Shown piece by piece: positions 9,096-57,842 of a DNA stretch of 64,000 bases. Each line of letters begins with the position of its first letter. Within the stretch, counting starts at the first letter, position 1. The stretch spans positions 2,240,001 to 2,304,000 of the forward strand of contig OX638340.1 of NCBI GenBank assembly GCA_951812955.1, given 5' to 3'. The position numbers were made by a program, and so were the translations under genes. The stretch comes from an uncultured Gemmatimonadota bacterium. Its GTDB lineage: Bacteria; JAAXHH01. The notes beneath the pieces are model-generated. The model did not search any database, was not told the origin of the DNA, and worked only from the letters and a program-made list of their open reading frames with translations.

Positions 9096-10184
9096 ATGAG
9101 CACCGATCAAGCTGACCAGGAACACGGCATCAAGGCGGTCAACCAGGAATTCACGCAATACGACCAGGTGAAGAAGGAACAGACCTACAACCTGGCCGAA
9201 GGCGCGGCGGAGGAGGAATTCGACGAGGAAACGCAGATCAGGACCTGCGACATGAACCTGTTCCATCACGGCGGACCGGAGGGCAAGGCGCAGTTCGCCC
9301 GGGACATCGGTGAGGCCATGGAGGGCATCGGTTTCGTGATCCTCGAGAACCATGAAATCCCGGCCAGCCTGTACGTCGAGGCCGAGCGCAAGGTAGCCGA
9401 GTTCTTCACGTCCACGCCTATAGCGGATAAGATGAGATACGAGGCCCAGCGGCACGGGTCGGTCAACCAGGGCTACTTCCCCATCAAGCAGACCAGCCGG
9501 ATGCATCCCGATCTCGTCGAGGGCTGGGTATTCTGCCGGCGGGCCTTCAACCTGGGCGAGAACCCGGACTACCGCGAAACGGACTACTGGCCCGCGACCG
9601 GATACGAACCCTTTTTCCGCCAGGTCATCCGGCATCACGAAGGTCTGATCCTGCCCCTCATGCAGAGCATCCTGGCCTATCTCGGCTGTGACTCGACAAT
9701 GTACGACGAGAAACTCACGCGAACGAACTTCGGCTTCCGGCTCAACTACTACCCGCCCATCACCCGGGAGGACGACGAGTCCGGCGCCGGACGCATGCTG
9801 GGCCATGAGGACGTGGACCTGTTCACCATCCTGCCCTCCCACGGGGTGGATGGCCTGCAGGTGCTCAACCGCGAAAACATGAAGTGGATCCGCCTCAATC
9901 CGCCCGAGGGCAGCATCATCATCAACACCGGCGACTACATGCAGCGGATCACCAACGACCGCCTTCCTTCCACCACGCACCGTGTCAGCAAGCCTATCGA
10001 CACCAGTCTCTACGAATCGGCCCGCATCAGCATTCCCATGGCCGTATACGTCTGGGAGGAAGAAATGCTCGAGGTGCTGCCCAACACGGGCGAGCCCAAG
10101 TACGAACCCATCTCCGCCGTCCAGTTCCACACCCGGACCACGAGCAAGTACTACGGCGACGATTATGCGGTGGATGATGATTGA
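9096..10184 (+). CDS. 2-oxoglutarate/Fe(II)-dependent oxygenase (isopenicillin-N-synthase-like family)
   Basis: 362-aa ORF with the facial-triad context GHEDVDLFTILP ... LPSTTHRV and a non-haem dioxygenase N-terminal region. Confidence 0.8.
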   Translation: MSTDQADQEHGIKAVNQEFTQYDQVKKEQTYNLAEGAAEEEFDEETQIRTCDMNLFHHGGPEGKAQFARDIGEAMEGIGFVILENHEIPASLYVEAERKVAEFFTSTPIADKMRYEAQRHGSVNQGYFPIKQTSRMHPDLVEGWVFCRRAFNLGENPDYRETDYWPATGYEPFFRQVIRHHEGLILPLMQSILAYLGCDSTMYDEKLTRTNFGFRLNYYPPITREDDESGAGRMLGHEDVDLFTILPSHGVDGLQVLNRENMKWIRLNPPEGSIIINTGDYMQRITNDRLPSTTHRVSKPIDTSLYESARISIPMAVYVWEEEMLEVLPNTGEPKYEPISAVQFHTRTTSKYYGDDYAVDDD

Positions 10185-10244
10185 CGGGGACTGTTGAATC
10201 GAAATGGCTGATTCGATGTGGACGACGACTGACTAAATCGGGGC
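10161..10244. repeat. diverged tandem copy of the 3-prime end of the 2OG oxygenase gene
   Basis: gattatgcggTGGATGATGATTGAcgggg (contains the stop at 10182-10184) is echoed at 10210-10244 as gattcgatgTGGACGACGACTGActaaatcgggg. Confidence 0.5.
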
Positions 10245-10380
10245 AGAAGCGGACCCTCTTCGAGCATTCGGAAGGTCGACGACCGAAGACGAAGCGATAA
10301 TACGTCTGTCGGCCACCCAGCGGCCCGCGAATGACCACCCGTGGTAGACGACGACAGGCGGGATCCAGGAAAGGCTAAGC

Positions 10381-11136
10381 ATGACTCCCCACGAAAGATA
10401 CCTCTTCGACCTGCAGGGTTTTATCGAGGTCCCGGACGCGTTGGACGCCGGGCAGCTCGCAGAACTGAACGGCATACTGGACGAGAAGATCGACGGGGCC
10501 ATGGCACCCGGCGCCACCACCCACCGATTCGGCTTCACCCTGCTCGACTGGGGACCAACCTACCGGGAACTGATCGACAATCCGCGGATAGATCCTTATC
10601 TGGAACAACTGATCGGTCCGAAGTACCGGCTGGACCACGATTATGCCGATATCATCCGAAAAGGCGACGGTCCAATCGGCACGACCCTCCACGGAGGCGC
10701 CATCCCCTTCGACCCCCTCTACTCCTACACCTGCACCAACGAAGAGATCCGTTGCGGCCTGACTGTGGTCGCCTACTACCTGAAGGACGTAAATCCAGGC
10801 GACGGCGGATTCGGCTGCGTGCCCGGCAGCCATAAGAGCAACTTCCGGTTCCCGGACGAGTGGCGCAACCTCAAGACCGACCAGCCCTTCATCCGCGCCG
10901 TAACCGGCAAGGCCGGCACCGCCGTCATATTCACCGAGGCCCTGACCCACGGCACCATGCCCTGGCACGGTGACGAGCGCCGCACCCTCTTCTACAAGTA
11001 CTCGCCCAATTCGATATCCTGGTACGCGGAATACTATGACGCCGACCGGTACGAAGGTCTGACGGAACGGCAGCAGGAGATCCTTGAGGCACCGAACGCG
11101 CGGTATGGAGAACGGTCTAAGCGTGGGGTTGTGTAG
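10381..11136 (+). CDS. phytanoyl-CoA dioxygenase (PhyH) family protein
   Basis: 251-aa ORF with PhyH-like motifs (TLHGGAIPFD, GFGCVPGSHKSNFRFP, TEALTHGTMPW). Confidence 0.8.
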   Translation: MTPHERYLFDLQGFIEVPDALDAGQLAELNGILDEKIDGAMAPGATTHRFGFTLLDWGPTYRELIDNPRIDPYLEQLIGPKYRLDHDYADIIRKGDGPIGTTLHGGAIPFDPLYSYTCTNEEIRCGLTVVAYYLKDVNPGDGGFGCVPGSHKSNFRFPDEWRNLKTDQPFIRAVTGKAGTAVIFTEALTHGTMPWHGDERRTLFYKYSPNSISWYAEYYDADRYEGLTERQQEILEAPNARYGERSKRGVV

Positions 11137-11214
11137 GTGGGCTTTACGGATAGACCAGTTGATATTACGACCACATTTATTTGCTCATTGATTTACTGTA
11201 TCTCGAGGTTACAA

Positions 11215-11505
11215 ATGGACGTTAAGGAAGCCGTAAGTACGGCCATAAAACATATTGCAGATGTATACTCGGAAGAGGGAATCTCGCATATTGGATTAGA
11301 AGAGGTAGAATACGACGAGATTAACTCACAATGGAACGTGACCGTTGGATTTGCACGTAAGTGGGACTTCCCTACTCCGGTTCTTATCCCCGTATTACCT
11401 TCACCAAGACCAAACCAAAGAACCTACAAAATCGTAGTAATTCGTGATAGAGACAAGAAGGTCACCGCAATGAAGATAAGGGATTTAGCTACGTCGAATG
11501 AATAG
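11215..11505 (+). CDS. small hypothetical protein (candidate antitoxin/partner of the PIN-like gene)
   Basis: 96-aa ORF starting at the ATG at 11215, preceded by gaggtt. Its stop overlaps the next gene's start by 8 nt (ATGAATAG). No recognisable DNA-binding motif. Confidence 0.45.
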   Translation: MDVKEAVSTAIKHIADVYSEEGISHIGLEEVEYDEINSQWNVTVGFARKWDFPTPVLIPVLPSPRPNQRTYKIVVIRDRDKKVTAMKIRDLATSNE

Positions 11506-11968
11506 TGTGCTTATAGATACGAATCTACTTGTCCTTTTGGTTGTAGGATCTACCGATAGAGAGTTTATTAGTCGACATAAACGCACAAAATCGTTCATAC
11601 CCAGAGACTATGACGAACTGACACGTCTGTTGTCGGGATCTCGTGAGTTATGGGTTACTTCTCACTGTCTGGCAGAGACATCGAATCTTCTGAAGCAAAC
11701 CGATAAAACAAAAGCACAGATCTTGTTACATACTCTTGCGGCCTACTGCGATATTGCCCGCGAATCGCATATTCCCAAAGAGACGGTATTTGGATACGAG
11801 AACTACCGCAGACTTGGCGTCACCGACACCGGCTTCATATACTCATCCGAAACAGTCTCTCGATCTATAACAGTAGATTTCAACTTGTACATCGAACTGA
11901 GTAACCTTGGCAGAGAAGTGATAAACTTCCACCACATCCGTGCTTCGTATCTCCAGAATGTCGATTGA
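11498..11968 (+). CDS. PIN-like nuclease domain protein (candidate toxin)
   Basis: 156-aa ORF with an N-terminal VLIDTNLLVLL motif and spaced acidic residues (CLAETSN, GVTDTG, TVDFN), consistent with a PIN-fold active site. Confidence 0.5.
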   Translation: MNSVLIDTNLLVLLVVGSTDREFISRHKRTKSFIPRDYDELTRLLSGSRELWVTSHCLAETSNLLKQTDKTKAQILLHTLAAYCDIARESHIPKETVFGYENYRRLGVTDTGFIYSSETVSRSITVDFNLYIELSNLGREVINFHHIRASYLQNVD

Positions 11969-12089
11969 CACGACGATCACACAGTTTTGCACATTCCAGT
12001 GCTTAGTTTTTGGTCAAGACCAACCTGTAGTTAAAACCAACCAATGGCCCTGAAGAAATCCCAAAATTTGGTAAACACTGCCAGGAGAG

Positions 12090-13034
12090 ATGCCACCTAT
12101 GCTTGACGAATTGGTTGGATGTATCGATGAACTTAAAGATCGTATTTCCAAATACCGAAACTCACTAAATGAGAACGAAACTCGTACTCGAATGCAGTTA
12201 ATAGATCCGCTGCTTCGTGTGCTGGGCTGGGACGTCTCCGATCCACGGTACGTTATCCCAGAATTCAAGGTGTCCGATGGTTGGGCTGACTATGCCTTAT
12301 TGCGGGATGATGGTAAGCCTGCTGCTATGGTGGAAGCTAAAAAACTGGACGAACCGTTAAAGCCCGCACACCGTGCTCAGATGTTGAAATACGCAATTGA
12401 GTTGGGTATCCCATACACTGGTTTGACAGATGGAAATCACTGGGAGTTGTACAATGTTTTCCAACCGGTACCTATGGAGGACAAACAGATCTTGGATGTT
12501 ACTTTATTGGATTCCCACTCCCACGAAAGTGCACTAAAGTTACTGCTGCTCTGGAATCCAAATCTAGACGCCGGCAGCGCGGTGAAAGCAAATGAACCTG
12601 TTCTCGTCGACACTCAGAATGGCGGTTCGATTCCTCCAATAATCGTTCCGCCACCATCGAACTGGAAGGCACTTTCAGATTACGAACCACCAGCAGGAAC
12701 ACCCGCACCTAAGGCTATTAGGCTTTGGGATGACTCAGAAAGAGAAGTGCATCATTGGTATGAAATTCTCACCATAGTAGCCGAAAAGCTCTACAACGAA
12801 AATGTCCTTACATTGGAACATATACCGATTCAATGGGCTAAAAAGACCTATAGTATTCACTCTCAACCAGTACATCCGACCGGCAACAAGTTTGAAAATC
12901 ATAAAGAAATCGGTAACTCGGGATTGTTCGTAAACGTAAATTTAAATACCGGTCAAGTACGAAATAACACCCGGAATCTACTGAAGAAATACAACATTGG
13001 TACAGAGAAGGTTTACCTCAAGGTAGCCGATTAG
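12090..13034 (+). CDS. HsdR_N-type PD-(D/E)xK nuclease-domain protein with an unknown C-terminal domain
   Basis: The N-terminal 130 aa match the type I restriction enzyme R-subunit N-terminal pattern: NENETRTRMQLIDPLLRVLGWD ... WADYALLRDDGKPAAMVEAKKL ... TDGNHWELY. The C-terminal 150 aa are unassigned. Confidence 0.6.
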   Translation: MPPMLDELVGCIDELKDRISKYRNSLNENETRTRMQLIDPLLRVLGWDVSDPRYVIPEFKVSDGWADYALLRDDGKPAAMVEAKKLDEPLKPAHRAQMLKYAIELGIPYTGLTDGNHWELYNVFQPVPMEDKQILDVTLLDSHSHESALKLLLLWNPNLDAGSAVKANEPVLVDTQNGGSIPPIIVPPPSNWKALSDYEPPAGTPAPKAIRLWDDSEREVHHWYEILTIVAEKLYNENVLTLEHIPIQWAKKTYSIHSQPVHPTGNKFENHKEIGNSGLFVNVNLNTGQVRNNTRNLLKKYNIGTEKVYLKVAD

Positions 13035-13447
13035 GTAGTTTCGTTGACCTACCATGTTGAGGAGTGATATTTCTTGATCTCCACAGACAAGGTTAAGGGT
13101 AAACCACAGCATACCTCCTCACTATCAGGCACGGTTCCTCAGTACGTTGAAGCGATATCAGCAACTCGCTAGCTAGCAGCTACCTGCCCCGTCGCATGGA
13201 ATACTGGGTACAAACCGTCTTTCACTTTAGTGGCGATTTGTTCACGGCTCCGTTCGTCAAATACAATTGAGCCCACTAATTCCACCTGTTTACCTCGACA
13301 AACAAGAGTACAGATCAATCACTTCGTATGACAAAACTCATTCAACTTCTATTCGAAATTGGAATCGGTGACCACCACTCAACCTCTGAATCGTGTGAGA
13401 CTGATGAAGATTCGCTGGTACATGGAAAGGATAATGGAGTGTAATTG

Positions 13448-15622
13448 ATGAATTCAACGTCTGAAGAAACCACCACCCGTCCCTGTTGGTTTGTGGGCGC
13501 CAGTTATTCTGGTACGGGCGATCAAACTGAGCGATTTCTCACGGAAGGTATCTGGGAGAACGGCTTCGACAACGATCATCCGGCCGTCGCGATGACCAAA
13601 ACCATTCAGCCCGGAGACCCAATCGCGATCAAGTCCGCCTACGTTCGCAAACACGACCTACCTTTTGACAGTCGCAACCAGTTCGTATCCGTAATGGCGA
13701 TCAAGGCCATCGGGACGGTTTTAGAGAACATCGGTGATGGCCATACCGTTAAGGTTAAATGGAATAAGGAGGTAACTCCGCGAGAATGGTATTTCTTTAC
13801 TAACAGAGGTACAGTTTGGAAAGTATCGCCTGGTAGTGACTGGTATTCCGACGCCCTGATCGGATTCGCGTTCGAGAACAAGCCGCAGGATATCGATCGT
13901 TTCTTAAAAGTGCCGTATTGGAGGGAGAGGTATCGAGGAGACACGCTCAATGATCAACGGTTTGCGTGGACGAGGTTCTACGAGGCCTTTGCGGATAAGC
14001 TGCTCACATATAGGAACAAGCGCTTAGACTTAATAAATGGTATACAAGAAATAGCTGCCAGAGAGTATGCCATGTTGGTTCTGAGGGATCAGTTTCGGGA
14101 CGGTACGATCGGTCCACTCAAAGACATATGCCCATTTACTACCATCGGATTGTTCAATAAGGGAATAACGAATAGCAATCGAAGATCAATTGCATCAGAA
14201 CTCGCTGAATTGCTGGGAGTGTCAGAGTCGGTTCCGGATTCATTCGATGGAATACCTGTTCTCAACAATCAGAATTCCTGGTTTTTTTCGTATGAAAAAA
14301 ACCGACGACCGGAAGATATTGAAATCCTTTGGAATGTTTACTCCCGTGCAATTGCCTTCGCTGATTCAGATGATTCCGATGCGCGATCTGCTTTCGTCTC
14401 TGCTTACGACGACGCATCCGAGGTTTCTCACGTAGGTTGGAAACTTACATTTGGGCTGTATTGGATACGGCCTTGGGATTTCCCCGTCCTCGACACGAAT
14501 ACCCGGCGTTACCTGGACAAGAAACTCAATATTGAGATCGGACTAAATGGACCGAAAAGGGGATACTGTAGTGCGAACGACTACCTGACGGTCCATGACA
14601 CACTTGAAAAGAGGTTTCTGGAGGACACATATCCGGTTCGTTCTTTTCCAGAACTAGCACGCGAAGCCTGGTTGTATAAGCCCGGTGACCCGGATCCCCC
14701 GCCAGATAGCGGTCTGGATCCCCCGCCACCACCTGTCCCTTATTCACTCGATGATATCGTGAAAGACGGCTGTTTCATTGCCAGAGATAAACTCGAGTCG
14801 ATACTCAATCGACTCCGTACCAAGAAAAACCTCATTCTACAAGGCCCTCCAGGAACCGGGAAGACTTGGCTCGCCAGGAAGTTGGCCTACGCTTTGATCT
14901 GTGAGCGAGACGAAAGCAAGGTTCGTTCGGTACAGTTCCATCCCAATCTCTCTTACGAAGATTTCGTACGTGGTTGGCGGCCGGCGGGAGATGGTAAACT
15001 TACGCTCGTAGATGGCCCCTTCATCGCCATAAGGGACGAGGCCGAAAAAGATCCTACTACTCGATACGTCTTGGTCATCGAAGAGATCAACCGGGGCAAT
15101 CCCGCACAGATTTTCGGCGAGATGCTGACATTGTTGGAGACCGACAAGCGAACTCCAGACGAAGCCTTGGAATTGGTTTATTCAAAGACTCCGGATGAGC
15201 GATTCTTTGTTCCTAACAATCTGTTTGTCATCGGGACGATGAACATTGCTGATCGTTCACTGGCACTTGTAGACCTGGCATTACGCCGTAGATTTGCATT
15301 TATCGATCTGGAACCTACCCTTGGCAAGACTTGGCGAGACTGGGTCCATTCTAAAAACGGGATAGATAACGAGACTCTCACCGAAATTGAGCATCGTATA
15401 GATGATCTGAACCGGACGATCTCCAATGATTCCGGTCTTGGCTCGCAATTTCGCTTGGGGCACAGTTATGTGACGCCGCCGTTTGAACAGCCGATTAAAG
15501 ATGGGAGAAAGTGGTACAGGGAAGTCGTTGAAACGGAAATTGGACCACTACTCGACGAATACTGGTTCGAAGACCTCGCGAAATCTAGAAACGCAAAAAA
15601 GAAACTTTTGGATGGTTTTTAG
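13448..15622 (+). CDS. mcrB: McrB-family AAA+ GTPase with a roughly 450-aa non-canonical N-terminal region
   Basis: Walker A ILQGPPGTGKTWLARKLA, FHPNLSYEDFVRGWRP, VLVIEEINRGNPAQIFGEMLTLLE and FVIGTMNIADRSLALVDLALRRRFAFIDL. ATG at 13448, 8 nt after GGAG. A proline-rich linker (PGDPDPPPDSGLDPPPPPVP) precedes the AAA+ module. Confidence 0.85.
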   Translation: MNSTSEETTTRPCWFVGASYSGTGDQTERFLTEGIWENGFDNDHPAVAMTKTIQPGDPIAIKSAYVRKHDLPFDSRNQFVSVMAIKAIGTVLENIGDGHTVKVKWNKEVTPREWYFFTNRGTVWKVSPGSDWYSDALIGFAFENKPQDIDRFLKVPYWRERYRGDTLNDQRFAWTRFYEAFADKLLTYRNKRLDLINGIQEIAAREYAMLVLRDQFRDGTIGPLKDICPFTTIGLFNKGITNSNRRSIASELAELLGVSESVPDSFDGIPVLNNQNSWFFSYEKNRRPEDIEILWNVYSRAIAFADSDDSDARSAFVSAYDDASEVSHVGWKLTFGLYWIRPWDFPVLDTNTRRYLDKKLNIEIGLNGPKRGYCSANDYLTVHDTLEKRFLEDTYPVRSFPELAREAWLYKPGDPDPPPDSGLDPPPPPVPYSLDDIVKDGCFIARDKLESILNRLRTKKNLILQGPPGTGKTWLARKLAYALICERDESKVRSVQFHPNLSYEDFVRGWRPAGDGKLTLVDGPFIAIRDEAEKDPTTRYVLVIEEINRGNPAQIFGEMLTLLETDKRTPDEALELVYSKTPDERFFVPNNLFVIGTMNIADRSLALVDLALRRRFAFIDLEPTLGKTWRDWVHSKNGIDNETLTEIEHRIDDLNRTISNDSGLGSQFRLGHSYVTPPFEQPIKDGRKWYREVVETEIGPLLDEYWFEDLAKSRNAKKKLLDGF

Positions 15623-16743
15623 TGGTGAATGGCCCAGTAGTTAGTACGGCTGACGAGACGATCGAACAGGCCGGGTATATCGGTCGTATCCCTTTACGAA
15701 ATATCTGGCTGCTCATGCTTTACGCCTCTGACCTTTTCAGGCAACTTGATGCGTCTGAATACCGCTCCTTCGAAGATAATCCTGATGACCTGCCCGATCT
15801 GGTTGCCGAGATCCTATCACATGAAGTCGAACGTCGACTAAAGCGAAATCTGAGTTACGGCTACCAATACCGTAACGAAGTGCTCGGACGGGTTCGCGGA
15901 CGTATCGACCTTTTACAAACCGAAGCTCATCAACTACTGCAACGCGGCATGGTCGCCTGTCGATTCGACGAACTGACAATCGACACACCGAGGAACAGGT
16001 ACGTTCGATCCGCCCTCGAGATGATATCCAAATATGTTCGTCGAAAAGACCTGGCTCACCAGTGCAGGTCCCTCGTTGGAAGCCTTAGGCGACAGGGAGT
16101 CGTTGGAGAACGACCTGGGCGTGAGGTGACGTCAGTTGAGCGATACGGTAGACATGACGCTGTTGACCGCAAGATGGTGGATGCGGCTCGTCTTGCCTTC
16201 GAAATGGCCATTCCGACCGAGCAGACCGGTTCCAGGCACCTTCCACTACCGGACCGTGATATAAACTGGATTCGCAGACTCTATGAGAAAGGCGTTGCAG
16301 GATTCTATGATGTGGTACTTTCCAGAAGGGGATGGAATGTGTATCCGGGAACGATTCTCAGATGGCCCACGACAGTCAGAAGTCCGCGAATAGACGGGAT
16401 ACTACCCTCCATGCGGACCGATATTGTGTTGGATCATGTTGACGAAGGCCGACGGATCGTTATAGACACGAAATTCAACTCGGTTTTGTCGAGAGGTTGG
16501 TATCGAAATGAAGGGATACGAAGCGGATACATGTACCAGATCTATGCTTACCTTAGGTCGCAGGAAGAGAGTGGTGATCCGCTTGATTGTAATGCAGAGG
16601 GAATGTTTCTCCATCCGTCGGTTGGTGAGATGTTCAACGAATGGGTAGATATTCAGGGTCATCGGATCCACTTCAATACCGTTGATCTCGCAACCGATAC
16701 ACAGACCATCAGATCGCAGTTGTTGGATGCGGTGAAACCTTAA
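15622..16743 (+). CDS. mcrC: McrC-family nuclease subunit
   Basis: The GTG start overlaps the mcrB stop (TAGTG). C-terminal PD-(D/E)xK motif MRTDIVLDHVDEGRRIVIDTKF followed by YQIYAYL. Confidence 0.75.
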   Translation: MVNGPVVSTADETIEQAGYIGRIPLRNIWLLMLYASDLFRQLDASEYRSFEDNPDDLPDLVAEILSHEVERRLKRNLSYGYQYRNEVLGRVRGRIDLLQTEAHQLLQRGMVACRFDELTIDTPRNRYVRSALEMISKYVRRKDLAHQCRSLVGSLRRQGVVGERPGREVTSVERYGRHDAVDRKMVDAARLAFEMAIPTEQTGSRHLPLPDRDINWIRRLYEKGVAGFYDVVLSRRGWNVYPGTILRWPTTVRSPRIDGILPSMRTDIVLDHVDEGRRIVIDTKFNSVLSRGWYRNEGIRSGYMYQIYAYLRSQEESGDPLDCNAEGMFLHPSVGEMFNEWVDIQGHRIHFNTVDLATDTQTIRSQLLDAVKP

Positions 16744-19359: not shown

Positions 19360-20754
19360 ATGCCCCCGATCGACATCGGCTCACGCCGCGAGCTCTTTGT
19401 AGACTCATTTCTGATCGACACCCTCACGGACGCCCACCAACATCTTCACGAACCCGTTCTAAAGGAGACGGTATTCCGCGTAGAGGAACCTCTGGAGAAC
19501 GCCTGTACGGGTTGCTACAACCTGGTACAGACAGACGGCAAAGTCCTGGTGTATTACCGCGGCTATCACCCCACGGGCAAACACGAGGATCTGCCCGAGG
19601 GTTGGGCGGAAACGCAGACGACAAACCTGCTGGTCAGCGATGACGGCATCCACTTCGAACGGCCGAACCTGGGCCTGGTGGAAGCGGAAGGTTCGAAGGA
19701 CAACAACATCCTCGTCCGGGGCCGCGAGGCACATAACTTCTGCGTCTTCCTGGACGGCAATCCGGAAGTGGCGCCCGATCAGCGTTTCAAGGCCGTCGGT
19801 GGAGAAGGCAGGGACAGTCTCTTCGGTTTCACTTCATCCGACGGATTGACCTGGAAACCGGTGCAGGACGGTCCCCTCGCGATCACGGGCGCCTTCGACT
19901 CGGTGAACGTGCCCCTTTGGGACGACTACGCGGGTTGCTACCGCCTCTTCAGCCGGTACTTCGAACAGACGGGGGAAGACGGCGTCGGGGTCCGGGCAAT
20001 TCAGAGCTGCACCTCGGAGGATTTCATCCACTGGACCACGCCCGAACATCACGTGTACGGCGAAGGCGTCCCGTTCGAGCACTTCTACACCAACGCCACC
20101 ACGCCATGCCCTGGCGCGGAACACATCCTGCTGTCCTTTCCCATGCGGTTCGTGCCGGAACGGACGAAGGACATCAAGGGCATGGATTACCCCGGGGGCG
20201 GCGTGTCCGACGCTATATTCATGTCGAGTCGGGACGGCGTCCACTGGGACCGGAGTTTCATGGACGCCTGGCTGCGCCCGGGCCTGGAAAAGCGCAACTG
20301 GACGCACCGCAACCAGACGCCGGCCGCGGGAATCGTTCCGACAGCCCCGGACGAATGGTCGATGTACGTCGCCGAGCATTACGGATGGGACACCAACGGC
20401 GTGAGGCGGGTGACCGTCCGTCCCCACGGTTTCGCCTCCGTCCGGGCAGGCTACTACGGTGGCGAACTGTTTACGAAACCCCTGACCTTCACCGGATCGA
20501 CGCTGTATATCAACTACTCGGCGTCCGCCGTGGGCGCCGTGTCCGTGGAGATTCAGGATACGGAAGGTCGAGCCTTGGAGGGATTTGCGGCAAACGACAT
20601 GGATCCCCTGTTCGGCGACGACCTGGACGCCCCGATTACGTGGAAGGGCTCCGACGGTCTGAATGGCCTGAACCGGCTGAACGGTGTGCCGGTCCGCCTG
20701 CGGTTCATCCTGAAGGACGCCGATCTCTTCTCGATCCGTTTCGGAGATTCCTGA
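19360..20754 (+). CDS. uncharacterised protein, probably a beta-propeller glycoside-hydrolase-like fold
   Basis: 464-aa ORF. The N-terminus IDIGSRRELFVDSFLID and repeated W/D-rich strands resemble uncharacterised GH32/43-superfamily-like proteins. The function call is weak. Confidence 0.4.
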   Translation: MPPIDIGSRRELFVDSFLIDTLTDAHQHLHEPVLKETVFRVEEPLENACTGCYNLVQTDGKVLVYYRGYHPTGKHEDLPEGWAETQTTNLLVSDDGIHFERPNLGLVEAEGSKDNNILVRGREAHNFCVFLDGNPEVAPDQRFKAVGGEGRDSLFGFTSSDGLTWKPVQDGPLAITGAFDSVNVPLWDDYAGCYRLFSRYFEQTGEDGVGVRAIQSCTSEDFIHWTTPEHHVYGEGVPFEHFYTNATTPCPGAEHILLSFPMRFVPERTKDIKGMDYPGGGVSDAIFMSSRDGVHWDRSFMDAWLRPGLEKRNWTHRNQTPAAGIVPTAPDEWSMYVAEHYGWDTNGVRRVTVRPHGFASVRAGYYGGELFTKPLTFTGSTLYINYSASAVGAVSVEIQDTEGRALEGFAANDMDPLFGDDLDAPITWKGSDGLNGLNRLNGVPVRLRFILKDADLFSIRFGDS

Positions 20755-20781
20755 GAAGAATCCTGAGAAGATTCGTGAGAA
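20746..20781. repeat. 12-bp x3 tandem repeat spanning the stop codon
   Basis: gattccTGAgaa / gaatccTGAgaa / gattcgTGAgaa. The first TGA (20752-20754) is the gene's stop, and all three are in frame. Confidence 0.9.
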
Positions 20782-21658: not shown

Positions 21659-21723
21659 TCAGCCCGGCGTGTCGGCAGTCAGCTCGGAACATTTGCACTC
21701 GGCCCGGTGTGTCGACAGCCAGC
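21659..21723. repeat. intergenic degenerate direct repeat (25 bp, period 40)
   Basis: tcagcccggcgtgtcggcagtcagc (21659-21683) versus tcggcccggtgtgtcgacagccagc (21699-21723). Confidence 0.7.
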
Positions 21724-27226: not shown

Positions 27227-27255
27227 CACGCTTCGGAGAGAGTAGCCGCGTGGGT

Positions 27256-44049: not shown

Positions 44050-44551
44050 GTCTTACCTCGCTTTCCCTGCCCTTGTGCCGCGTCCTCGGGCGTCCTCAAG
44101 AGGTGGCCGTCGCGAGACTCGGTTAGCCCTCGACCGTCAGTGAACGTCGCCGGGCCTGTTTCCATTCGCATGGCCATGGGAAGCGCCTCGCGGCTGCTTG
44201 ATTCATTATACGCACCAACCGGCCAATACGCTTCATTTGGCCTGGATTTCTACCGTACTACAGCAACATAGGGTGCAAACTCCATGCCACGATGATTCCG
44301 TGTCGACGACTTGATGATTCCGTGCCTCCTTCACGATGCTTCTGGGCCGACGGCATGGTAAATTCGCGCCACGCCAGGATTCTATTCGCGTATATGTGCC
44401 AATTTGGCATATCAGGTCGCACAAACTGCCATTTTAGCATGTGGCTTACTACAGAATCTCACACTATTTGGTCGGCAACTTCATCCCTCCGCTCGAATCC
44501 GTGTATGCCACGGCCTTCGCATAGCTATTCCGAACCGCGCCGGAGGTTTTT

Positions 44552-44647
44552 CTGCCCAGACCGTACTGCGCCTGTGTGATCTGCTGTCCGGACCGCGCTG
44601 CGCCAGTGTAATTTGCTACCCGGACTGCGATACGCCTTGTGTGTTCT
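44552..44647. repeat. 32-bp x3 degenerate tandem repeat in a 780-bp intergenic region
   Basis: ctgcccagaccgtactgcgcctgtgtgatctg / ctgtccggaccgcgctgcgccagtgtaatttg / ctacccggactgcgatacgccttgtgtgttct. Confidence 0.85.
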
Positions 44648-44830: not shown

Positions 44831-45298
44831 ATGAAACGTCCTTTCATTCGGATCTTGACGACCACGCTGTCATGCTTTCTTATCGCGGGATTGGCCATGG
44901 CGGGTTGCGGCGGCGAAGGCGGCGGAAGCCAGGACCATGCCGAAGAACCGGCCGAAAGCGAGGCGCCCGACCCGAACACCGAGGCGCGCCAGGAGTACAT
45001 GAGAGAGATCGCGCAGCTCTGCGAAGGGATCGCCCTGGCGATCGAGGAAGGATCCGTGGGGACGATCGGCGCCGACGTGTCGAATCTCAAGGGGGTCATG
45101 GAGGAAGTGTCTACGATGCCTCCGCGATACGATTCTTCGAGATTCGGGTTCTACGCCTCCGACTTCCAGATACGCGCCGACACGCTCATCGCAGCTGCGG
45201 AGACCGGTTCGGCCATCGAGGCCGACTCCGCGATGCAAGCCCTCGCGATCACCTGCGGCGTTTGCCATTACAACTGCAAGTTCCCGGCCGATCCGTAA
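44831..45298 (+). CDS. cytochrome c' / class II cytochrome c-like lipoprotein
   Basis: Lipoprotein signal MKRPFIRILTTTLSCFLIAGLAMAGCGG, a helical body, and a single CxxCH haem motif near the C-terminus (ITCGVCHYN). ATG at 44831, after AGGAA. Confidence 0.65.
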   Translation: MKRPFIRILTTTLSCFLIAGLAMAGCGGEGGGSQDHAEEPAESEAPDPNTEARQEYMREIAQLCEGIALAIEEGSVGTIGADVSNLKGVMEEVSTMPPRYDSSRFGFYASDFQIRADTLIAAAETGSAIEADSAMQALAITCGVCHYNCKFPADP

Positions 45299-45360
45299 TT
45301 CGCGGTTAGTTCCCGGCCGACCCGTAAATATCCGGCAAGTTCCCGGCCGATCCGTAATTC
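45278..45360. repeat. about 30-bp x3 tandem copies of the cytochrome gene's 3-prime end
   Basis: aagttcccggccgatccgTAAttc (45278-45301, authentic stop at 45296-45298), tagttcccggccgacccgTAAata (45307-45330), aagttcccggccgatccgTAAttc (45337-45360). Confidence 0.9.
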
Positions 45361-45376
45361 CCGCCAAGGAGGAACC

Positions 45377-52270: not shown

Positions 52271-53059
52271 TTAGTGCCGCGGTACCAGCACTTCGTTGGC
52301 GCTGTCCAGCCGGACGGGTTTCGCGTAGTGATACACGTTGACGCCCTCGGCGACCGGCGTGGGCACCCGGACGATGAACTCCACCCAGTCAGGTGTATTA
52401 AACGCGGCGAAGGCCAGTTCGATCCCTTCCATCATGTCTTCCGGGTCGCGGGTCAGGTCCGGCAGCAGTACCGGGCCCGTGTCCGGCTGGTAGATCCAGT
52501 CCCGCTCGTTGGCATTGATCGTCTTGACCGGGTATTCGAGCACCGCGGCGTACCGGTCGTTCCCGATGGTCGTCCGGGCGTTCAGGGGGACGTTGCCGAG
52601 GACGGCCTCGACGATGGTCCGCGGCGTCTCCAGAAGGCGGCCGTCCACGCGGGACAGGTCGATCCGGACGTCGTCGAAGGTCTCCGCGATGGCGACGATC
52701 TGCCGCTCGGGCTGCTCTCCCAGGGAGGGCGGGTAGAGCGTGGCGCCCCGGTTCGCCACCTCGTAGGTCTTGATGGCCATGAAGGTGTCCGACGAGAAGA
52801 TCGGCTTGAAGTCCGCGCTGGGGATGTGCCAGATATCCCGCTCCACCCCGACCTGTTCGGTCTTGCAACTCACCCCCAGGACGTATTCTTCCCGGAACCC
52901 GCCGTCCTTCCCGGTCACGGTCAGGGTGGCCTCTATGGGAATGCGGGCGTTATTCAGGGAATAGGGCACCTTCTGGGTCACGGTCTTCGGCGGTTTCTTC
53001 TCGGAATCCACGCGAAAGGTAAAATAGGAACGCGCGAAATCGATGGTCTGCATGGGCAT
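52271..53059 (-). CDS. hypothetical protein
   Basis: 262-aa ORF starting at the ATG at 53059, preceded by AGGAG with a 5-nt spacer. No signal peptide and no motif I recognise. Confidence 0.5.
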   Translation of the reverse strand: MPMQTIDFARSYFTFRVDSEKKPPKTVTQKVPYSLNNARIPIEATLTVTGKDGGFREEYVLGVSCKTEQVGVERDIWHIPSADFKPIFSSDTFMAIKTYEVANRGATLYPPSLGEQPERQIVAIAETFDDVRIDLSRVDGRLLETPRTIVEAVLGNVPLNARTTIGNDRYAAVLEYPVKTINANERDWIYQPDTGPVLLPDLTRDPEDMMEGIELAFAAFNTPDWVEFIVRVPTPVAEGVNVYHYAKPVRLDSANEVLVPRH

Positions 53060-53090
53060 GGGCACTCCTGAAAGGTTCTGCAGCAACCGG

Positions 53091-53180
53091 CTATGGACTA
53101 CTTGATCCAGATGCAGCCTACAAATGGTTTTTCAACATCTGATTATGGACTACTTGACGCGACTGATTATGGACTACTTG
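53091..53180. repeat. three copies of (g)attatggactacttg upstream of the hypothetical gene
   Basis: ctatggactacttga (53091-53105), gattatggactacttga (53141-53157), gattatggactacttg (53165-53180). Confidence 0.85.
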
Positions 53181-53220
53181 TGATTATGTACCTTCTGTTC
53201 CAGACGCAGATTAAAATGGG

Positions 53221-53266
53221 TCCTGGACACGGTTATTCATACCTTCTGGACACGGTTATTCATACC
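53221..53266. repeat. 23-bp x2 tandem duplication spanning the permease stop codon
   Basis: tcctggacacggttattcatacc (53221-53243) / ttctggacacggttattcatacc (53244-53266). The minus-strand stop (tta at 53256-53258) lies in the second copy. Confidence 0.9.
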
Positions 53267-55718
53267 TCAATGCATGCACAGGGTCGGACAGCGTGGTCTT
53301 CAACGTATGATACATCACAGTCAGCAGAGCGATCATCGTGACGAAAGCCCCTACGAGACCGAAGATGCCAAGATTGACCACGGCGTGATACGCAAACTCC
53401 TGAATCCACGTCATCATCATCGTGTACGCAATTGGCCAGGCTATGGCGTTTGCGATGAGTGACAAAATGACCACCTCGCGGCATTGCAGGGTTAACAGAC
53501 TCAGAAAAGTCGCTCCCAGTGCCTTTCGTATCCCCACTTCCCTGATGCGTTTTCTTGTCGTGTATGAAACAAGGCCGGTCAGGCCCAGGCAAGCGATAAG
53601 AACCGCTATCAGCGAAAAACTGCCGAGTATCGTAATCAGTCTGTTCTCTTCGTTATAGAACTGTGCGGTGTCTTCATCCAGGAAGTAGTAGGCAAATGCG
53701 AAGTCCGGATTGATGTCCCTCCATGTCTCCTCGATGAATGCCAGGGTTTCCTCGTAGTTCTCCGAACCGAGTTTAATGGACACATTCCAGAATTCATCTG
53801 ATGCGAGCATGGCGAGCGGTTCGATTTCCGACCTTAAGCTATTGTAATGAAAGTCATTTACTACCCCGATTACCGTTCTGAAGGATTCAGCGGCCTCCCC
53901 GGACGCTGACATGCCGCGGGGCGCAATCCACCTTATCCTTTCTCCCACGGCTCCTTCAGCAGAATCCCAGCCGGCTTTCGCGGCCGCGCGCTCGTTGAGA
54001 ATGATTGAACGCCTGTCTTCCGCCGCCAGGGTACTCGAGAAAAAACGTCCTGCTTTCATGGTCATGCCAAGCGTACGGAGGTAGTCGGCGTCGACCCAAA
54101 AGGTCCTTACCTGGATTTGCCCTCCGTCGTCTGCGGTTATCGGCCGTATGGTCGTTTGTAGCGGCGGTCTTCCCGGGGGCATGTCGGACCCGGAAACACT
54201 GAGTACGCTATGGTGTTCAAGCAGTCTTTCTTTCAGGGCCGAGAATGTATTTACGACAGGAGTGAATGTGAGCGGAATGACGACTATCCGTTGGTTGTCA
54301 TAGCCCAGGTCCTTGTCCCGGATGTAATCTATTTGCTGATACACGATGCAGGTAGCGATTATCAGAACAGTCGATATGGTGAATTGAAACACGACCAGCG
54401 TTTGACGCAGCGACGCCTTTTTTATCCCTCTGCTAATCCCGCTTTTAAGTACGTCAATCGGTTTGTAAGATGAAAGCAGGAGGGCGGGGTAAATGCCGGA
54501 GACAAGTCCAACCATCAGCGAAGTGCCGAGTAACGCCGGTATCAACTCGGAGATATCATAACTGATCTGGTCTGCTGACGCTGTCATCATACTGCTGAAC
54601 ACGGGAAGCAGGAACTCGATCATTCCCCAAGCGATAGGCAAGGCGATGATGGCGATAAACACAGACTCTCCGATATGCTGTGCCATCAGTTGGGCTCGTT
54701 GCGCTCCCAGCGTTTTACGCAGTCCTATTTCACCTGCACGGCCGCTCGAGTACGCGGTAGCGAGATTGATGAAGTTCACACAGGCAATCATCAGTATCAG
54801 TACCGCTACGGCGCCGTAGAGGAAAACAGTTGAAATACTGCCGTTTGGTTCCAACTCACCCATGCGACTAGAGTAAAGATGAATGGATGTCAGGGGTTGC
54901 AGAGTGAGGTCAAAAGTAATTTGCTCACTTTCAAACCGGGGATTCACGTGCCTGGAAACAAACTCGGGAAACTTGGTGGTCAATTCACCGGGGATGGAAG
55001 CCGGTGTGAGCAACAAGTAAACATGGCTGCGGTTCCAAAGATCCCAGGTGTACCGCTCATCCGGCCTAAAACTGACCGATGATTCACGTTGATGTGCGAG
55101 AAAATCATAATTCATGTGCGAGTTTGGTGGCAGGTCTCGCATTACCCCCACGATACGATAGTCCCAGGTATCTTCGGCGCGAATCGTTTTACCTATGGGA
55201 TCGGCATCCTTGAAGTACTTCAGCGCCATGGATTCGGACAAAACGACCGTAAAGGCGTCTTTCAGCGCGGTTTCGGGGTTTCCTTGAACGAATTCGACCG
55301 AAAAAACATCGAAAAACGTGGAGTCCGTGTGATAGAACCCCTTTTCATAGAATCGATTTTCGCCGTGGGCTATCATGTAGGAAGAACCCGGTTTCAGAAC
55401 GGTCACCGACGCTTGAATTTCCGGGAACTCCTCTTTCAGGACGCTGACCAGGGGGGTCAAGGCAGCAGCGGTTTCCGTGGTGCTGTTCGGACTGTGTATG
55501 TCCATCGCCACGCGGTATATTCTGTCTGAATTCACATTGAACCGATCGAAACTCAGTTCGAACCGCATGTAGAGCATAATCATCACGAAACATGTTACGC
55601 CAATTGTAAGACCCACTACATTGATGGATACATAAGCCTTATTGTTCCACAGGTGGCGAACAGTAGTCCTTAAAATGTTACTGATCAGCGACGCAGGAAG
55701 AAACCCGGTAGCGGCCAT
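53256..55718 (-). CDS. MacB/FtsX-type ABC transporter permease (two FtsX domains)
   Basis: N-terminus ILRTTVRHLWNNKAYVSINVVGLTIG, a large periplasmic domain, and two 4-TM FtsX modules (RKTLGAQRAQL and RKALGATFLSL loops). Start chosen at the ATG at 55718. No adjacent ATPase gene. Confidence 0.85.
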   Translation of the reverse strand: MAATGFLPASLISNILRTTVRHLWNNKAYVSINVVGLTIGVTCFVMIMLYMRFELSFDRFNVNSDRIYRVAMDIHSPNSTTETAAALTPLVSVLKEEFPEIQASVTVLKPGSSYMIAHGENRFYEKGFYHTDSTFFDVFSVEFVQGNPETALKDAFTVVLSESMALKYFKDADPIGKTIRAEDTWDYRIVGVMRDLPPNSHMNYDFLAHQRESSVSFRPDERYTWDLWNRSHVYLLLTPASIPGELTTKFPEFVSRHVNPRFESEQITFDLTLQPLTSIHLYSSRMGELEPNGSISTVFLYGAVAVLILMIACVNFINLATAYSSGRAGEIGLRKTLGAQRAQLMAQHIGESVFIAIIALPIAWGMIEFLLPVFSSMMTASADQISYDISELIPALLGTSLMVGLVSGIYPALLLSSYKPIDVLKSGISRGIKKASLRQTLVVFQFTISTVLIIATCIVYQQIDYIRDKDLGYDNQRIVVIPLTFTPVVNTFSALKERLLEHHSVLSVSGSDMPPGRPPLQTTIRPITADDGGQIQVRTFWVDADYLRTLGMTMKAGRFFSSTLAAEDRRSIILNERAAAKAGWDSAEGAVGERIRWIAPRGMSASGEAAESFRTVIGVVNDFHYNSLRSEIEPLAMLASDEFWNVSIKLGSENYEETLAFIEETWRDINPDFAFAYYFLDEDTAQFYNEENRLITILGSFSLIAVLIACLGLTGLVSYTTRKRIREVGIRKALGATFLSLLTLQCREVVILSLIANAIAWPIAYTMMMTWIQEFAYHAVVNLGIFGLVGAFVTMIALLTVMYHTLKTTLSDPVHALRYE

Positions 55719-55852
55719 GGCGGATCTCCAGCAGCTTAAAACGGGATTTCGTACAGGAAGCAGAAGCCACCCCAACCTTATGCGGACAATATAGTGTTCC
55801 CCTCGACTTTTCGGTACGACATTACAGGCGTAACGCGGCAACCAGGAGCACC

Positions 55853-57697
55853 ATGTCAAGCGAACTGACCAGGACCTACCGCCCGTTCTCGGACTCCCGC
55901 CCCTACACCCGCTGGTGGTGGTTCTACGATGACATCAGGGCGGTGGACATCCGGACGCAGTTGCGATGGGTGCGGGACCAGGGATTCGGTGGCGTGGAGA
56001 TCGCCTTCATGTATCCGCAGCCAGGGTCCGGTGAAGGGCCCCACTGGCTGAGCGAGGCGTGGACCGACTTGGTCGCCTTCGCCAAGGAAGAGGCGGACCG
56101 GCTCGGGATCGGATGCGACTTCACCTTCAGCACGTCCTGGCCCTTCGGTGGGTCGATCGTTCCCGAGGAGGACGCGGGACAGGTATTCGGCGGGCCGGCG
56201 ACCCAGCGCCTGGAAAAGTCGTGGGAACTGTCCTATTTCGGCCGCGGCCGGATCCTGAACCACCTGGACACGGGCGCGTTCAGCCGTTACGCCGAGCAGG
56301 TAGGTGGCGCACTGAAACCCGCCCTGCGCGGTACGACCTCGGGAATGTTCTCCGATTCGTGGGAGGTTTTCCCGGAGGGCCTCTGGAGCGCCCACCTGGA
56401 CCCCGTCTTCAGGGATCGTTTCGGGTACGACCTGGAACCGTTCAAGGCATGTATCGACCAGCATCCCGACGTGCGGTACGATTACCGGAAGATCCTGTCG
56501 GATGCGGCGATCGAGGGCTTCTTCAGGCCCTATGCCGAGGTTTGCCACCGCCTCGGCGCCGTGAGCCGCGTGCAGTGTCACGGGGCGCCGACGGACCTGC
56601 TGGCCGCTTTCGCGCTCGTGGACGTCCCGGAATCGGAGGCCCTGCTGTTCGAGACGTTCTTCTCGGCCATACCGGGTTCGGCCGCGGCCCTGGGCTCTCG
56701 GCCCGTGGTGACCTGCGAGACGTTCACCTGTATCTACGGCTACGCGCCATGGCCCGCGCCGTCACCCCATCACGGCGAGGAGAAGGTGGAGGACATGAAG
56801 CTCATGGCGGACGCGGTGTTCGCCAACGGCGTCAACCACATCGTCTGGCACGGCATGCCCTACAACGCGCCGGGCGGGAACAACACCTTCTACGCGACCA
56901 CGCACGTCGGTCCGGGCAGCGGATTCGCCGGCCGGCTTCCGGCCTTCAACGCCTACATGGCCGAGGCCTCCGATTTCGTCAAGCAGGGCAGAACGTATAC
57001 GGACGTGGCCGTGTACCTCCCACTGGAAGACCACTGGATGTGCCATACGCTGCCCGAGGAACGGCGCGGACCGGCCGCGAACTATTACTGGGAACTGCAA
57101 ACCGTCGAACGGCCCGGTGCCTTGCTTGGGTACCATCCCCTCTGGATATCGACGCCTTTTCTGGAGGAAGCGGAGGTGGAGGACGGCCGCGTTCGATATG
57201 GAGAGGCAGTCTTTTCCGTATTGTATGTGGACGTGGAATGGCTGGACGGCGAAGCCCTGTCGGCCCTGCAGCGGCTGGCAAGGGAAGGTGCGCATATCGT
57301 CATTCCGCGCAGGCCTGCCGCGCCCGGCCACCGTCCGCCTGCGGATTACGAGGATCGCCTGAAACAACTGATGAGCCAACCAGCGGTTACCACTGATCCG
57401 GGTGAGGCGCTGCGGCATCCTCCCCTCGTGAGCGGCCTGGACACGCCGGAATTCTGGTGCAGGGAGGTCGACGGCGACTACCACCTATACTTCGCCCATC
57501 CCGATACGAAGCGCATCCGGTACCCCATGGCCTACGAGGGCTGGCGTTCCACGGGCCTGGTCGAGCGGGAAGTAGTCCTGCATGTCAACAGCCGGGAGCG
57601 GACGGTGCGCCTGGCCTTCGAGCCCGAAGATGCCATGCTGGTCAGGGTATCGGCCACGGGCGCGGTGGACGTGGAACCGGGGCGTGTTGATGAGTGA
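55853..57697 (+). CDS. putative glycoside hydrolase (GH106-like N-terminal TIM-barrel pattern)
   Basis: The N-terminus RPYTRWWWFYDDIRAVDIRTQLRWVRDQGFGGVEIAFMYP resembles the start of uncharacterised/GH106-type hydrolases. Family assignment is tentative. Confidence 0.5.
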   Translation: MSSELTRTYRPFSDSRPYTRWWWFYDDIRAVDIRTQLRWVRDQGFGGVEIAFMYPQPGSGEGPHWLSEAWTDLVAFAKEEADRLGIGCDFTFSTSWPFGGSIVPEEDAGQVFGGPATQRLEKSWELSYFGRGRILNHLDTGAFSRYAEQVGGALKPALRGTTSGMFSDSWEVFPEGLWSAHLDPVFRDRFGYDLEPFKACIDQHPDVRYDYRKILSDAAIEGFFRPYAEVCHRLGAVSRVQCHGAPTDLLAAFALVDVPESEALLFETFFSAIPGSAAALGSRPVVTCETFTCIYGYAPWPAPSPHHGEEKVEDMKLMADAVFANGVNHIVWHGMPYNAPGGNNTFYATTHVGPGSGFAGRLPAFNAYMAEASDFVKQGRTYTDVAVYLPLEDHWMCHTLPEERRGPAANYYWELQTVERPGALLGYHPLWISTPFLEEAEVEDGRVRYGEAVFSVLYVDVEWLDGEALSALQRLAREGAHIVIPRRPAAPGHRPPADYEDRLKQLMSQPAVTTDPGEALRHPPLVSGLDTPEFWCREVDGDYHLYFAHPDTKRIRYPMAYEGWRSTGLVEREVVLHVNSRERTVRLAFEPEDAMLVRVSATGAVDVEPGRVDE

Positions 57698-57842
57698 AGC
57701 AGCGCATGGATTCATTGCCACATAGGCGCATTGAGGCGTCGCATCAGCACATTGCCGCAAAGATGCATTGGAGCGCCGCGTAAACTCATTGTCGAACAGG
57801 CGCAATGAAGCGGCGCATAGATTTACTGCCGCAAAAGCGTAT
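57695..57842. repeat. 37-bp x4 degenerate tandem array starting exactly at the stop codon
   Basis: Units start at 57695 (TGAagcagcgcatggattcattgccaca), 57732 (tgaggcgtcgcatcagcacattgccgca), 57769 (tggagcgccgcgtaaactcattgtcgaa) and 57806 (tgaagcggcgcatagatttactgccgca). Confidence 0.85.

Follow-up and report, generated by a model that had tools for sequence, protein, structure and literature searches.

We analyzed a 64,000-nt stretch of DNA from an uncultured Gemmatimonadota bacterium (contig OX638340.1, positions 2,240,001 to 2,304,000; hereafter the window), in which the last codons of genes and their stop codons are found as short tandem copies at the gene ends. These gene-end copies are real and recurrent in the window. 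Arrays were detected by Tandem Repeats Finder (TRF), a self-shift scan and direct reading, and stop codons were placed from the ends of open reading frames (ORFs). An anchored test scored tandem self-matches over the stop codon, with a threshold of at least 12 and a period of 9-90. An earlier note, made from the sequence alone, had listed about ten duplicated gene ends. Six of these were robust by the anchored test, namely those of a beta-propeller gene, TlpA, the second of two MarR genes (MarR-2), lon, a cytochrome c'-like gene and MacB. The end of the FMN reductase gene was secured through a relative, the GH106-like gene has an array of a different form, and the case of the 2OG oxygenase is weak. 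Every gene name in the note was upheld by Pfam, which identified 2OG oxygenase, AhpC/redoxin (TlpA), FMN reductase, MarR, cytochrome c', MacB/FtsX, GH106 and NUDIX in the window, and the 939-aa ORF adjoining NUDIX is an intact MutS. The following gene ends were considered.

10171-10232, plus strand: end of the 2OG-Fe(II) oxygenase gene, TGGATGATGATTGA, with the stop at 10182-10184 and a possible old copy, TGGACGACGACTGA, at 10219-10232
20745-20781, plus strand: end of the beta-propeller-like gene (19360-20754), three copies of a 12-bp unit with TGA (20752-20754) inside; found by TRF, anchored score 16
23193-23242, plus strand: end of the TlpA/redoxin gene (22642-23208), two copies of a 25-bp unit with TAG (23206-23208) inside; 76% self-identity, P<0.002
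23341-23378, minus strand: end of the FMN reductase gene (23363-23974), two copies of a 19-bp unit with the stop (23363-23365) inside; 79% self-identity, P<0.002
37160-37216, plus strand: end of MarR-2 (36699-37181), 1.7 copies of a 33-bp unit with TAA (37179-37181) inside; anchored score 18
41542-41635, minus strand: end of lon, two 100% identical copies of a 47-bp unit; found by TRF and direct reading
45276-45361, plus strand: end of the cytochrome c'-like gene, three copies of a unit of about 30 bp with TAA (45296-45298) inside; found by TRF, direct reading and the anchored test
53223-53267, minus strand: end of the MacB/FtsX permease gene, two copies of a 23-bp unit (22+23) with TAA (53256-53258) inside; found by TRF and direct reading
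57695-57842, plus strand: end of the GH106-like gene, four copies of a 37-bp unit from TGA (57695-57697) on; 66% self-identity, P<0.002

Gene-end arrays in the window and their counterparts in relatives

The closest public relatives of the window genome are metagenome genomes labelled Candidatus Latescibacterota or Gemmatimonadetes, and were reached via Lon (L001, L002, L164-L166 and L170) or via MutS (L161-L163, L167 and L168). Their MutS or Lon proteins are 86-97% identical, and their loci are syntenic with the window at a DNA identity of 80-96%, L170 being the 96%-identical relative. L169, whose MutS is 75% identical and whose GC content is 0.40, served as an outgroup. An exact look-up of the window Lon protein matched no record.

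The 47-bp unit at the lon end consists of the final 37 nt of lon, TGA (41596-41598) and 7 nt beyond, and is flanked by an imperfect GCAAGG/GCAGGA repeat. The lon end is single-copy in L001, L002 and L170. As the duplication is missing even in the 96%-identical L170, it is very recent, and the process that generates such copies is ongoing. The lon end of L164 was copied independently; a perfect 43-nt second copy lies 103 nt downstream with a 60-nt filler between the two, and the copies in the window and in L164 begin at most 3 nt apart. In L170, lon itself (3378-5830) is split between two predicted ORFs (637 and 170 aa), which reflects a frameshift, an assembly error or a pseudogene.

The array of the beta-propeller gene recurs as 2.2 copies in L161, as two co-varied 12-mers in L162 and as a copy at a 32-nt period in L163, and the gene end is single-copy in L167 and L169. 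The TlpA pair is common to the window and, among the relatives, L161 only; in L162, a 9-nt in-frame duplication accompanied by the loss of the first stop has made the protein 3 aa longer. Likewise, the FMN reductase pair is shared by the window with L161 only, where it is clearer (16/19 identical; 19 bp x2.2 at 91%), and this end is single-copy in L162. The MarR-2 repeat was recovered by blastn as a 24-nt match at 92%, and the array is absent from the MarR orthologues in L002, L165 and L168. The array of the cytochrome c'-like gene is nested, with a 59-bp period superimposed, and occupies the spacer up to the ribosome-binding site (RBS) of the next gene. L170 has the same three-copy array, L001 is single-copy, and L164 and L165 carry 17 bp x3.2 and 18 bp x3.3, respectively.

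The MacB/FtsX gene lies in a 2.8-kb insertion of lower GC content (53057-55852) in a divergent promoter region. The insertion is not found in L001 and L002, where this region spans only about 240 bp. Gene-end repeats had been reported as missing from the AT-rich islands; since the MacB gene is located within a lower-GC insertion, the islands are not free of them.

Two gene ends differ from the description in the earlier note. The GH106-like gene is indeed followed by four 37-bp copies, but these start at the stop codon and leave the last codons unrepeated; the spacer that leads to the next start codon measures 174 nt in the window, compared with 66 nt in L001 and 19 nt in L166. The diverged repeat described for the 2OG oxygenase is the weakest case. 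The putative copy is located 48 nt downstream of the gene end (10171-10184 versus 10219-10232) and matches it at 11/14 bases, the differences being T/C only; the pair is not significant alone, and its anchored score is below the threshold. In all six robust cases the stop codon falls in the distal half of the unit. This position was considered as a rule and rejected, as across the clade the relative position of the stop spans 0 to 1.

The NUDIX gene had been described as a mirror-image case, with a repeat at its start codon, and this repeat is real. The 55-bp unit, present in 2.4-3 copies (TRF span 27283-27417), repeats the RBS region and the first codons of NUDIX, which starts at 27374. The further intergenic arrays listed in the note were likewise detected, except that the copies downstream of MacB are irregularly spaced and do not form a tandem array. 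These and further features are as follows.

27227-27417, plus strand: MutS-NUDIX spacer, with decayed copies of the MutS end (TAGCACGC / TAGCCGCG / GTAGAGAGG) followed by the 55-bp repeat
21659-21723: intergenic, degenerate 20-bp unit x3; 56% self-identity, P<0.002, below the TRF threshold
27807-27836: intergenic, a real array
36170-36215: between the two MarR genes, 17 bp x2.7, purely intergenic
36284-36404: between the two MarR genes, 48 bp x2.2 with a sub-period of 23-25, purely intergenic
44288-44352: upstream of lon, intergenic, 22 bp x3
44552-44625: upstream of lon, intergenic, 32 bp x2.3
53092-53180: downstream of the MacB stop, three irregularly spaced 15-17-mers, copies of GATTATGGACTACTTGA

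Repeats are unusually dense in the spacer that separates the MarR genes (36004-36698). The two MarR-family genes (35419-37181) are adjoined by a gene for a PIN-domain toxin (34711-35118, minus strand), and the relatives carry PIN plus PhdYeFM pairs at the MarR/PIN position. At the place orthologous to 44552-44625, L170 has 32 bp x2.8.

Enrichment at stop codons and turnover across the clade

A permutation test within the window showed that stop codons are enriched: where circular shifts would put arrays over 1.14 stop codons, 6/46 are covered (P=0.0016), and 1/44 start codons are covered against 1.08 expected. As controls we used 157 Lon-gene neighbourhoods from other phyla (2.28 Mb), which were processed by the same home-made gene caller; they include distant Lon relatives of at most 57% identity, the sole yield of a scan of metagenomes for Lon. 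The home-made gene calls were cross-checked against independent gene calls for the relatives. By the anchored test at a score of at least 12, 6/50 gene ends in the window (12%) are positive compared with 16/1717 (0.9%) in the controls (Fisher P=2e-5), and at a score of at least 16 the counts are 5/50 and 6/1717 (P=6e-6).

Stop-spanning duplication is a property of the whole clade and not of the window genome alone. The relatives carry many stop-spanning arrays, at the same and at other gene ends. TRF, with one gene-calling pipeline for both sets, found 19 such arrays per 159 genes in the clade (nine loci, 226 kb) compared with 14 per 1863 in the controls, and the anchored test was positive for 24/233 gene ends across the clade, in 15/67 ortholog groups. 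The outgroup L169 has no arrays; its genes are more tightly spaced, and its GC content of 0.40 compares with about 0.60 in the clade. The rise in GC content and the repeat habit of the clade may have originated jointly.

Other classes of repeats are also more frequent in the clade. Perfect two-copy duplications occur at 114-162 per Mb against 27 per Mb in the controls (4-6x). Stop-spanning arrays are enriched 16x at all periods and 35x at periods of at least 16; the corresponding values are 1.8x and 5x for intergenic arrays per kb of non-coding DNA, and 1.9x and 2.6x for intragenic arrays per kb of coding DNA. Start-spanning arrays are enriched 1.8x, or about 11x at periods of at least 16, the latter on one or two arrays per group. 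We also simulated plain geometry: the arrays of the clade loci were first collapsed, and every observed unit was then given a uniformly chosen place on them, which gave an expectation of 5.2 stop-spanning, 5.1 start-spanning and 46 intergenic arrays, compared with 19, 2 and 36 observed. The control loci fit this geometry, with stop-spanning arrays about as frequent as start-spanning ones. Depending on the null, a stop-specific excess of 2-8 fold remains. Individual gene ends were considered as hot spots, and this idea was rejected: when shared ancestry is allowed for, only MutS, whose ends bear arrays in 4/7 lineages, stands out, and the unevenness is barely above binomial.

The comparison of orthologous loci called for in the earlier note showed that arrays are present or absent by lineage, that copy number varies among close relatives, and that the duplications differ in age. 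The units at the cytochrome c' end differ by lineage (30, 17 and 18 nt), and those at the end of a glyoxalase gene measure 62 nt and 17 nt (x7) in different lineages. The iPGM and ROK genes overlap by 4 nt in the window, L163, L165, L166 and L167, and a 53 bp x2.5 array lies between them in L164. A 62-bp duplication in L002 was considered as an event that un-overlapped two genes; as the downstream start is at 46372 in the window and there is no overlap, it is an ordinary stop-spanning duplication.

The most layered junction is that of MutS and NUDIX. The two genes overlap by 4 nt in the outgroup L169 and are separated by 2 nt in L168. In L167, the 42-nt spacer consists of the last 17 nt of MutS plus TAG in 3.2 copies, and in the last copy, directly 5′ of the NUDIX start, the stop has been lost through a change of TAG to CAG. 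L162, like L167, has GGGAAGCAGCC before the NUDIX start. Arrays at the MutS end are 17 bp x4.8 in L162, 19 bp x3 and then 19 bp x7 in L161, and 20 bp x3.2 in L167, with the MutS end in 1 to more than 7 copies across lineages, and the NUDIX repeat is present in three copies in the window, two in L162 and one in L163. The contig of L161 terminates within the 19-bp x7 array 3′ of MutS (12770-12905), which indicates that such arrays fragment short-read assemblies.

Downstream of lon, gene-end copies lie close to a promoter-like site of the gene for a PDZ protease.

41421-41449, minus strand: promoter-like TTGACG-17-TATTAT that belongs to the PDZ-protease gene downstream, conserved at every clade locus
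About 41446-41475, minus strand: putative decayed older copy of the lon end upstream of the promoter-like site, aligned by eye

In L001, the lon stop codon falls inside the -35 hexamer of the TTGACG-17-TATTAT site, and other lineages show GGCGTAAACGATTGACGCC-like remnants upstream of it. Just 3′ of the PDZ-protease stop, L170 has a 37-nt GC-rich palindrome (7496-7536; CGGGGCGC...GCGCCCCG), which is absent from the window (equivalent position about 39880) and represents a type of insertion unlike the tandem copies.

Tandem duplication also reaches into coding sequence. The C-terminal tail of Lon (window about 41640-41700) varies through in-frame tandem duplications, giving lengths of 817-848 aa among proteins of about 90% identity (P0122-P0152), with EPVD-like units in 1-5 copies among the relatives. 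In addition, the Lon protein P0128 has a GEDGE duplication and P0129 an N-terminal insert.

Two further regions of the window lie apart from the gene-end arrays. A predicted secreted protein of 337 aa (4470-5483, minus strand) consists nearly entirely of Gly-Asp dipeptide repeats with a poly-Asp tail; its DNA shows 12- and 60-nt periodic repeats (4469-5310), and its sole Pfam match is weak and TrAA12-like. The low-GC island at 11137-16743 (0.45-0.49) encodes a McrBC-type restriction system (AAA_5 McrB-like and McrC) and an HSDR_N-like protein. The slot of this island, between the 2OG oxygenase and propeller genes, is occupied in the relatives by McrBC and HNH in L161, an Eco57I-like gene in L162, and a methylase with BsuBI/PstI in L163, and is empty in the outgroup L169.

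Possible origins of the gene-end copies

The units have little in common. When 15 units were compared by blastn with the window and with each other, they matched only themselves or adjacent copies, revealing no shared motif. The window has no Rfam match at the gathering score. Structured RNA in the lon and cytochrome c' units was rejected, as shuffled sequences fold as well (z-scores -0.07 to +1.2). Slippage driven by terminator hairpins was also rejected, as terminator-like sites are not in excess (15 against 13.9 expected) and none adjoins an array. Moreover, units of 25, 47, 23 and 29-30 nt shift the frame of the extra stops, which is kept by the 12- and 33-nt units alone; in-frame back-up stops are excluded, as the length of most units is not divisible by three. 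The earlier note had raised back-up stops, 3′ untranslated region (3′UTR) elements or factor-binding sites as a functional alternative, and the evidence from frame, motif and folding speaks against it. Factor-binding sites in particular are unlikely, since the units lack a shared motif. Functional elements would fit the finding that several lineages bear arrays at the same gene ends, and at one mycobacterial intergenic tandem-repeat locus, repeat length was reported to alter downstream expression (PMC2734929). Nevertheless, second copies diverge freely among close relatives, and individual arrays are missing in close relatives without a compensating change. We regard a role as back-up stops, 3′UTR structures or regulator-binding repeats as very improbable, and the arrays themselves are presumably without function.

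It is even harder to believe that the arrays are artefacts introduced when the metagenome genomes were assembled or polished. Repeats do disturb assembly, as seen from the L161 contig that ends in an array. However, assemblies made independently, from other samples and with other assemblers, also contain the TlpA, FMN reductase, propeller and cytochrome c' arrays, with substitutions, which argues that they are not artefacts, and artefacts would respect neither stop codons nor the multiple-of-three rule inside genes.

This rule is the signature of a selective sieve: array periods are multiples of three in 55/66 cases inside genes compared with 24/58 outside. In-frame duplications in tolerant protein tails of the relatives, such as that of Lon, and the 4-6x density of perfect two-copy duplications agree with it. 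Short tandem duplication is therefore probably frequent, with selection acting as the sieve, and the arrays would be by-products that are tolerated. The high-GC clade would make tandem duplications of about 10-60 (occasionally 100) bp unusually often. To survive, a duplication wholly within a gene would have to keep the frame and lie in a tolerant segment. A duplication across a stop codon would be tolerated because the proximal copy retains an intact ORF, whereas a duplicated RBS and start codon would usually be removed. Surviving copies would then expand, contract, re-duplicate with new boundaries and decay, so that the tiny or overlapping spacers of compact relatives could turn into 100-200 bp of layered repeats derived from gene ends. 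We infer an elevated mutation rate, whose molecular cause might be replication slippage or the fill-in and joining of staggered breaks.

The earlier note had proposed much the same, namely that duplication is frequent and that copies straddling gene boundaries survive and then decay. This explanation is the best supported, with three corrections. The pattern is clade-wide and not confined to one genome; a high rate combined with a universal sieve leaves the excess at stops partly unexplained; and the junctions do not bear out the suggested mediation by microhomology. Junction microhomology is inconsistent at only 0-5 nt, with run minus period ranging from -1 to 5 nt and similar values in controls, and exact microhomology is lacking at the junctions of the two youngest large events (run minus period 0 and -1).

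Several results weigh against sieved duplication as the whole account. A high rate with a universal sieve predicts a similar fold-increase in all tolerated classes, and the increases are unequal (16-35x at stops, 1.8-5x in intergenic and 1.9-2.6x in intragenic DNA). The 19, 2 and 36 stop-spanning, start-spanning and intergenic arrays depart from the 5.2, 5.1 and 46 expected under uniform placement, and since the controls fit pure geometry, the sieve alone does not give the asymmetry between stops and starts in the clade. Simple loss of mismatch repair is not the cause, given that MutS is intact. The counts themselves are small and inflated by orthologous arrays that are shared by descent and thus counted repeatedly, the clade loci represent two genomic neighbourhoods, and the control genes come from a home-made caller. 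These small numbers, repeated counts and restricted neighbourhoods also soften the excess at stops, as does the fact that part of the 'non-coding' DNA consists of unannotated genes or constrained promoters and that a copy under coding selection stays recognisable longer.

Two further processes could add to sieved duplication at stop codons. In a compact ancestor, many gene ends may have overlapped the promoter, RBS or start codon of the next gene. A duplication may separate such overlapping signals, after which complementary decay would lock the copies in, the proximal one keeping the coding end and the distal one the expression signal. As the copies would divide two jobs between them, their collapse would be harmful and they would be retained, so that stop-spanning arrays at junctions would by far outlast ordinary intergenic duplications. 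Such a ratchet complements sieved duplication and would account for a stop class enriched beyond the intergenic class. It is suggested by the MutS-NUDIX junction, with its 4-nt overlap in L169, 2 nt in L168 and three MutS-end copies in L167, the last of which has lost its stop and shares GGGAAGCAGCC with L162. The iPGM-ROK junction, overlapping by 4 nt in most lineages and filled by the 53 bp x2.5 array in L164, points the same way, as does the lon stop inside the -35 hexamer in L001 with a decayed lon-end copy upstream of the promoter elsewhere. On the other hand, 4/10 cases in the window (propeller, TlpA, FMN reductase and MarR-2) lie between convergent genes, with neither a downstream start nor a promoter, and the young lon and MacB duplications show no divided labour yet. 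The compact state was taken as ancestral from a handful of lineages and not from a tree, lon-PDZ spacers measure 128-300 nt in the outgroups L169 and L003, and the homology of the decayed copies was judged by eye. We therefore regard the ratchet as a tentative addition, with the chances rather against it.

Alternatively, breaks or stalled forks could concentrate just past stop codons, where RNA polymerase without a coupled ribosome might backtrack or form R-loops and hit the replisome. In a clade with a lost or altered safeguard, such sites would give rise to short duplications when repaired through template switching or through fill-in and end joining. The excess is indeed specific to stops (19 arrays versus 2 at starts) and 4-8x beyond that of intergenic arrays. 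MutS ends bear arrays in 4/7 lineages, the independent lon-end copies of the window and L164 start at most 3 nt apart, and the lack of exact microhomology in the two youngest large events fits the joining of filled-in ends. Yet the position of the stop varies over the whole unit length across the clade, which argues that there is no fixed breakpoint relative to the stop. The unevenness among gene ends hardly exceeds binomial when shared ancestry is allowed for, neither a hairpin nor a terminator lies beside the arrays, and the imperfect GCAAGG/GCAGGA repeat around the lon unit is compatible with slippage. Such a concentration of damage past stops is unlikely.

Sieved duplication, which we continue to favour, has consequences beyond these loci. 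Bacterial intergenic DNA is mostly regarded as an unchanging background, and its origin is seldom observed. Within the clade, the bases of spacers 100-200 bp long can be followed back to copied last codons and stops. All stages can be seen, ranging from a perfect duplication that a 96%-identical relative lacks to remnants in decay. If the excess at stops holds genome-wide, it would point either to a ratchet separating gene ends or to a bias of damage and repair at gene 3′ ends. We offer as a speculative extension, less likely to be right than wrong, that duplication at junctions is the main route of the clade from a compact ancestor to intergenic DNA, locked by the ratchet, to which a bias past stops may add. 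If spacers are built in this way, about 10% of gene ends would record the process at different stages, and the clade would be a natural system for the birth of bacterial spacers and regulatory independence. The arrays can also alter C-termini, as in the TlpA protein of L162 (+3 aa) and the Lon tails, and they may mislead gene callers and ortholog alignments in the clade and break short-read assemblies.

Comparison with known repeat systems

Tandem duplication by misalignment is a general mechanism. Target-site duplications and att repeats at gene 3′ ends flank an inserted element. Like att repeats, the arrays here reproduce a gene 3′ end while the ORF stays intact; in contrast, nothing separates the copies of the lon, MacB, TlpA, propeller and cytochrome c' arrays, a recombinase gene is lacking, and the units share no core site. 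As the copies abut without spacers, they are also distinct from CRISPR arrays. Intrinsic terminators and structured 3′UTRs are not indicated, given the lack of excess stable stem-loops and of a match to an RNA family. Repetitive extragenic palindromic (REP) sequences, bacterial interspersed mosaic elements (BIMEs) and miniature inverted-repeat transposable elements (MITEs) differ in that the units here have no dispersed copies and fold no better than shuffles.

Mycobacterial interspersed repetitive units (MIRUs) are tandem units of 40-100 bp between operon genes, placed so that reading frames adjoin the neighbouring stop and start codons or overlap with them (PMC12548453, PMC2734929). They form one dispersed, apparently mobile family with homologous units at about 41 loci. 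They are located at start codons with coupled small ORFs (PMC12548453). In our arrays, each locus has its own unit, found nowhere else in the window, and the codons concerned are stops, not starts (6 versus 1 in the window, 19 versus 2 in the clade). The absence of dispersed homologous copies at many loci thus sets the arrays apart from MIRU, REP and MITE families alike. For close direct repeats, within 50 nt of each other, a survey found a general excess in intergenic DNA and a slight deficit in genes (PMC4060949); that survey reported neither anchoring to stop codons nor a clade with a 16-35x excess at gene ends. We found no description of a clade in which about 10% of stops lie inside tandem copies derived from gene ends, in a literature search that left most subscription journals outside.

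The arrays are variable-number tandem repeats (VNTRs), or minisatellites, by definition, consisting of head-to-tail copies of one unit whose copy number varies between relatives. Together with the MIRUs, the nearest counterparts are the locus-specific VNTRs of the Mycobacterium tuberculosis complex, in which head-to-tail repeats of tens of bp similarly fill a co-directional spacer with strain-variable copy number (PMC2734929). At VNTR3239/ETR-F, the rnc-fpg spacer measures 1-6 bp in other mycobacteria, whereas in the M. tuberculosis complex tandem repeats bring it to 279-358 bp (PMC2734929), and the MutS-NUDIX, GH and iPGM-ROK junctions described here resemble this locus. Unlike the M. tuberculosis VNTRs, which number a few dozen loci, the arrays occur at about 10% of gene ends across the whole clade, and their units derive visibly from the end of the upstream gene, including its stop codon.

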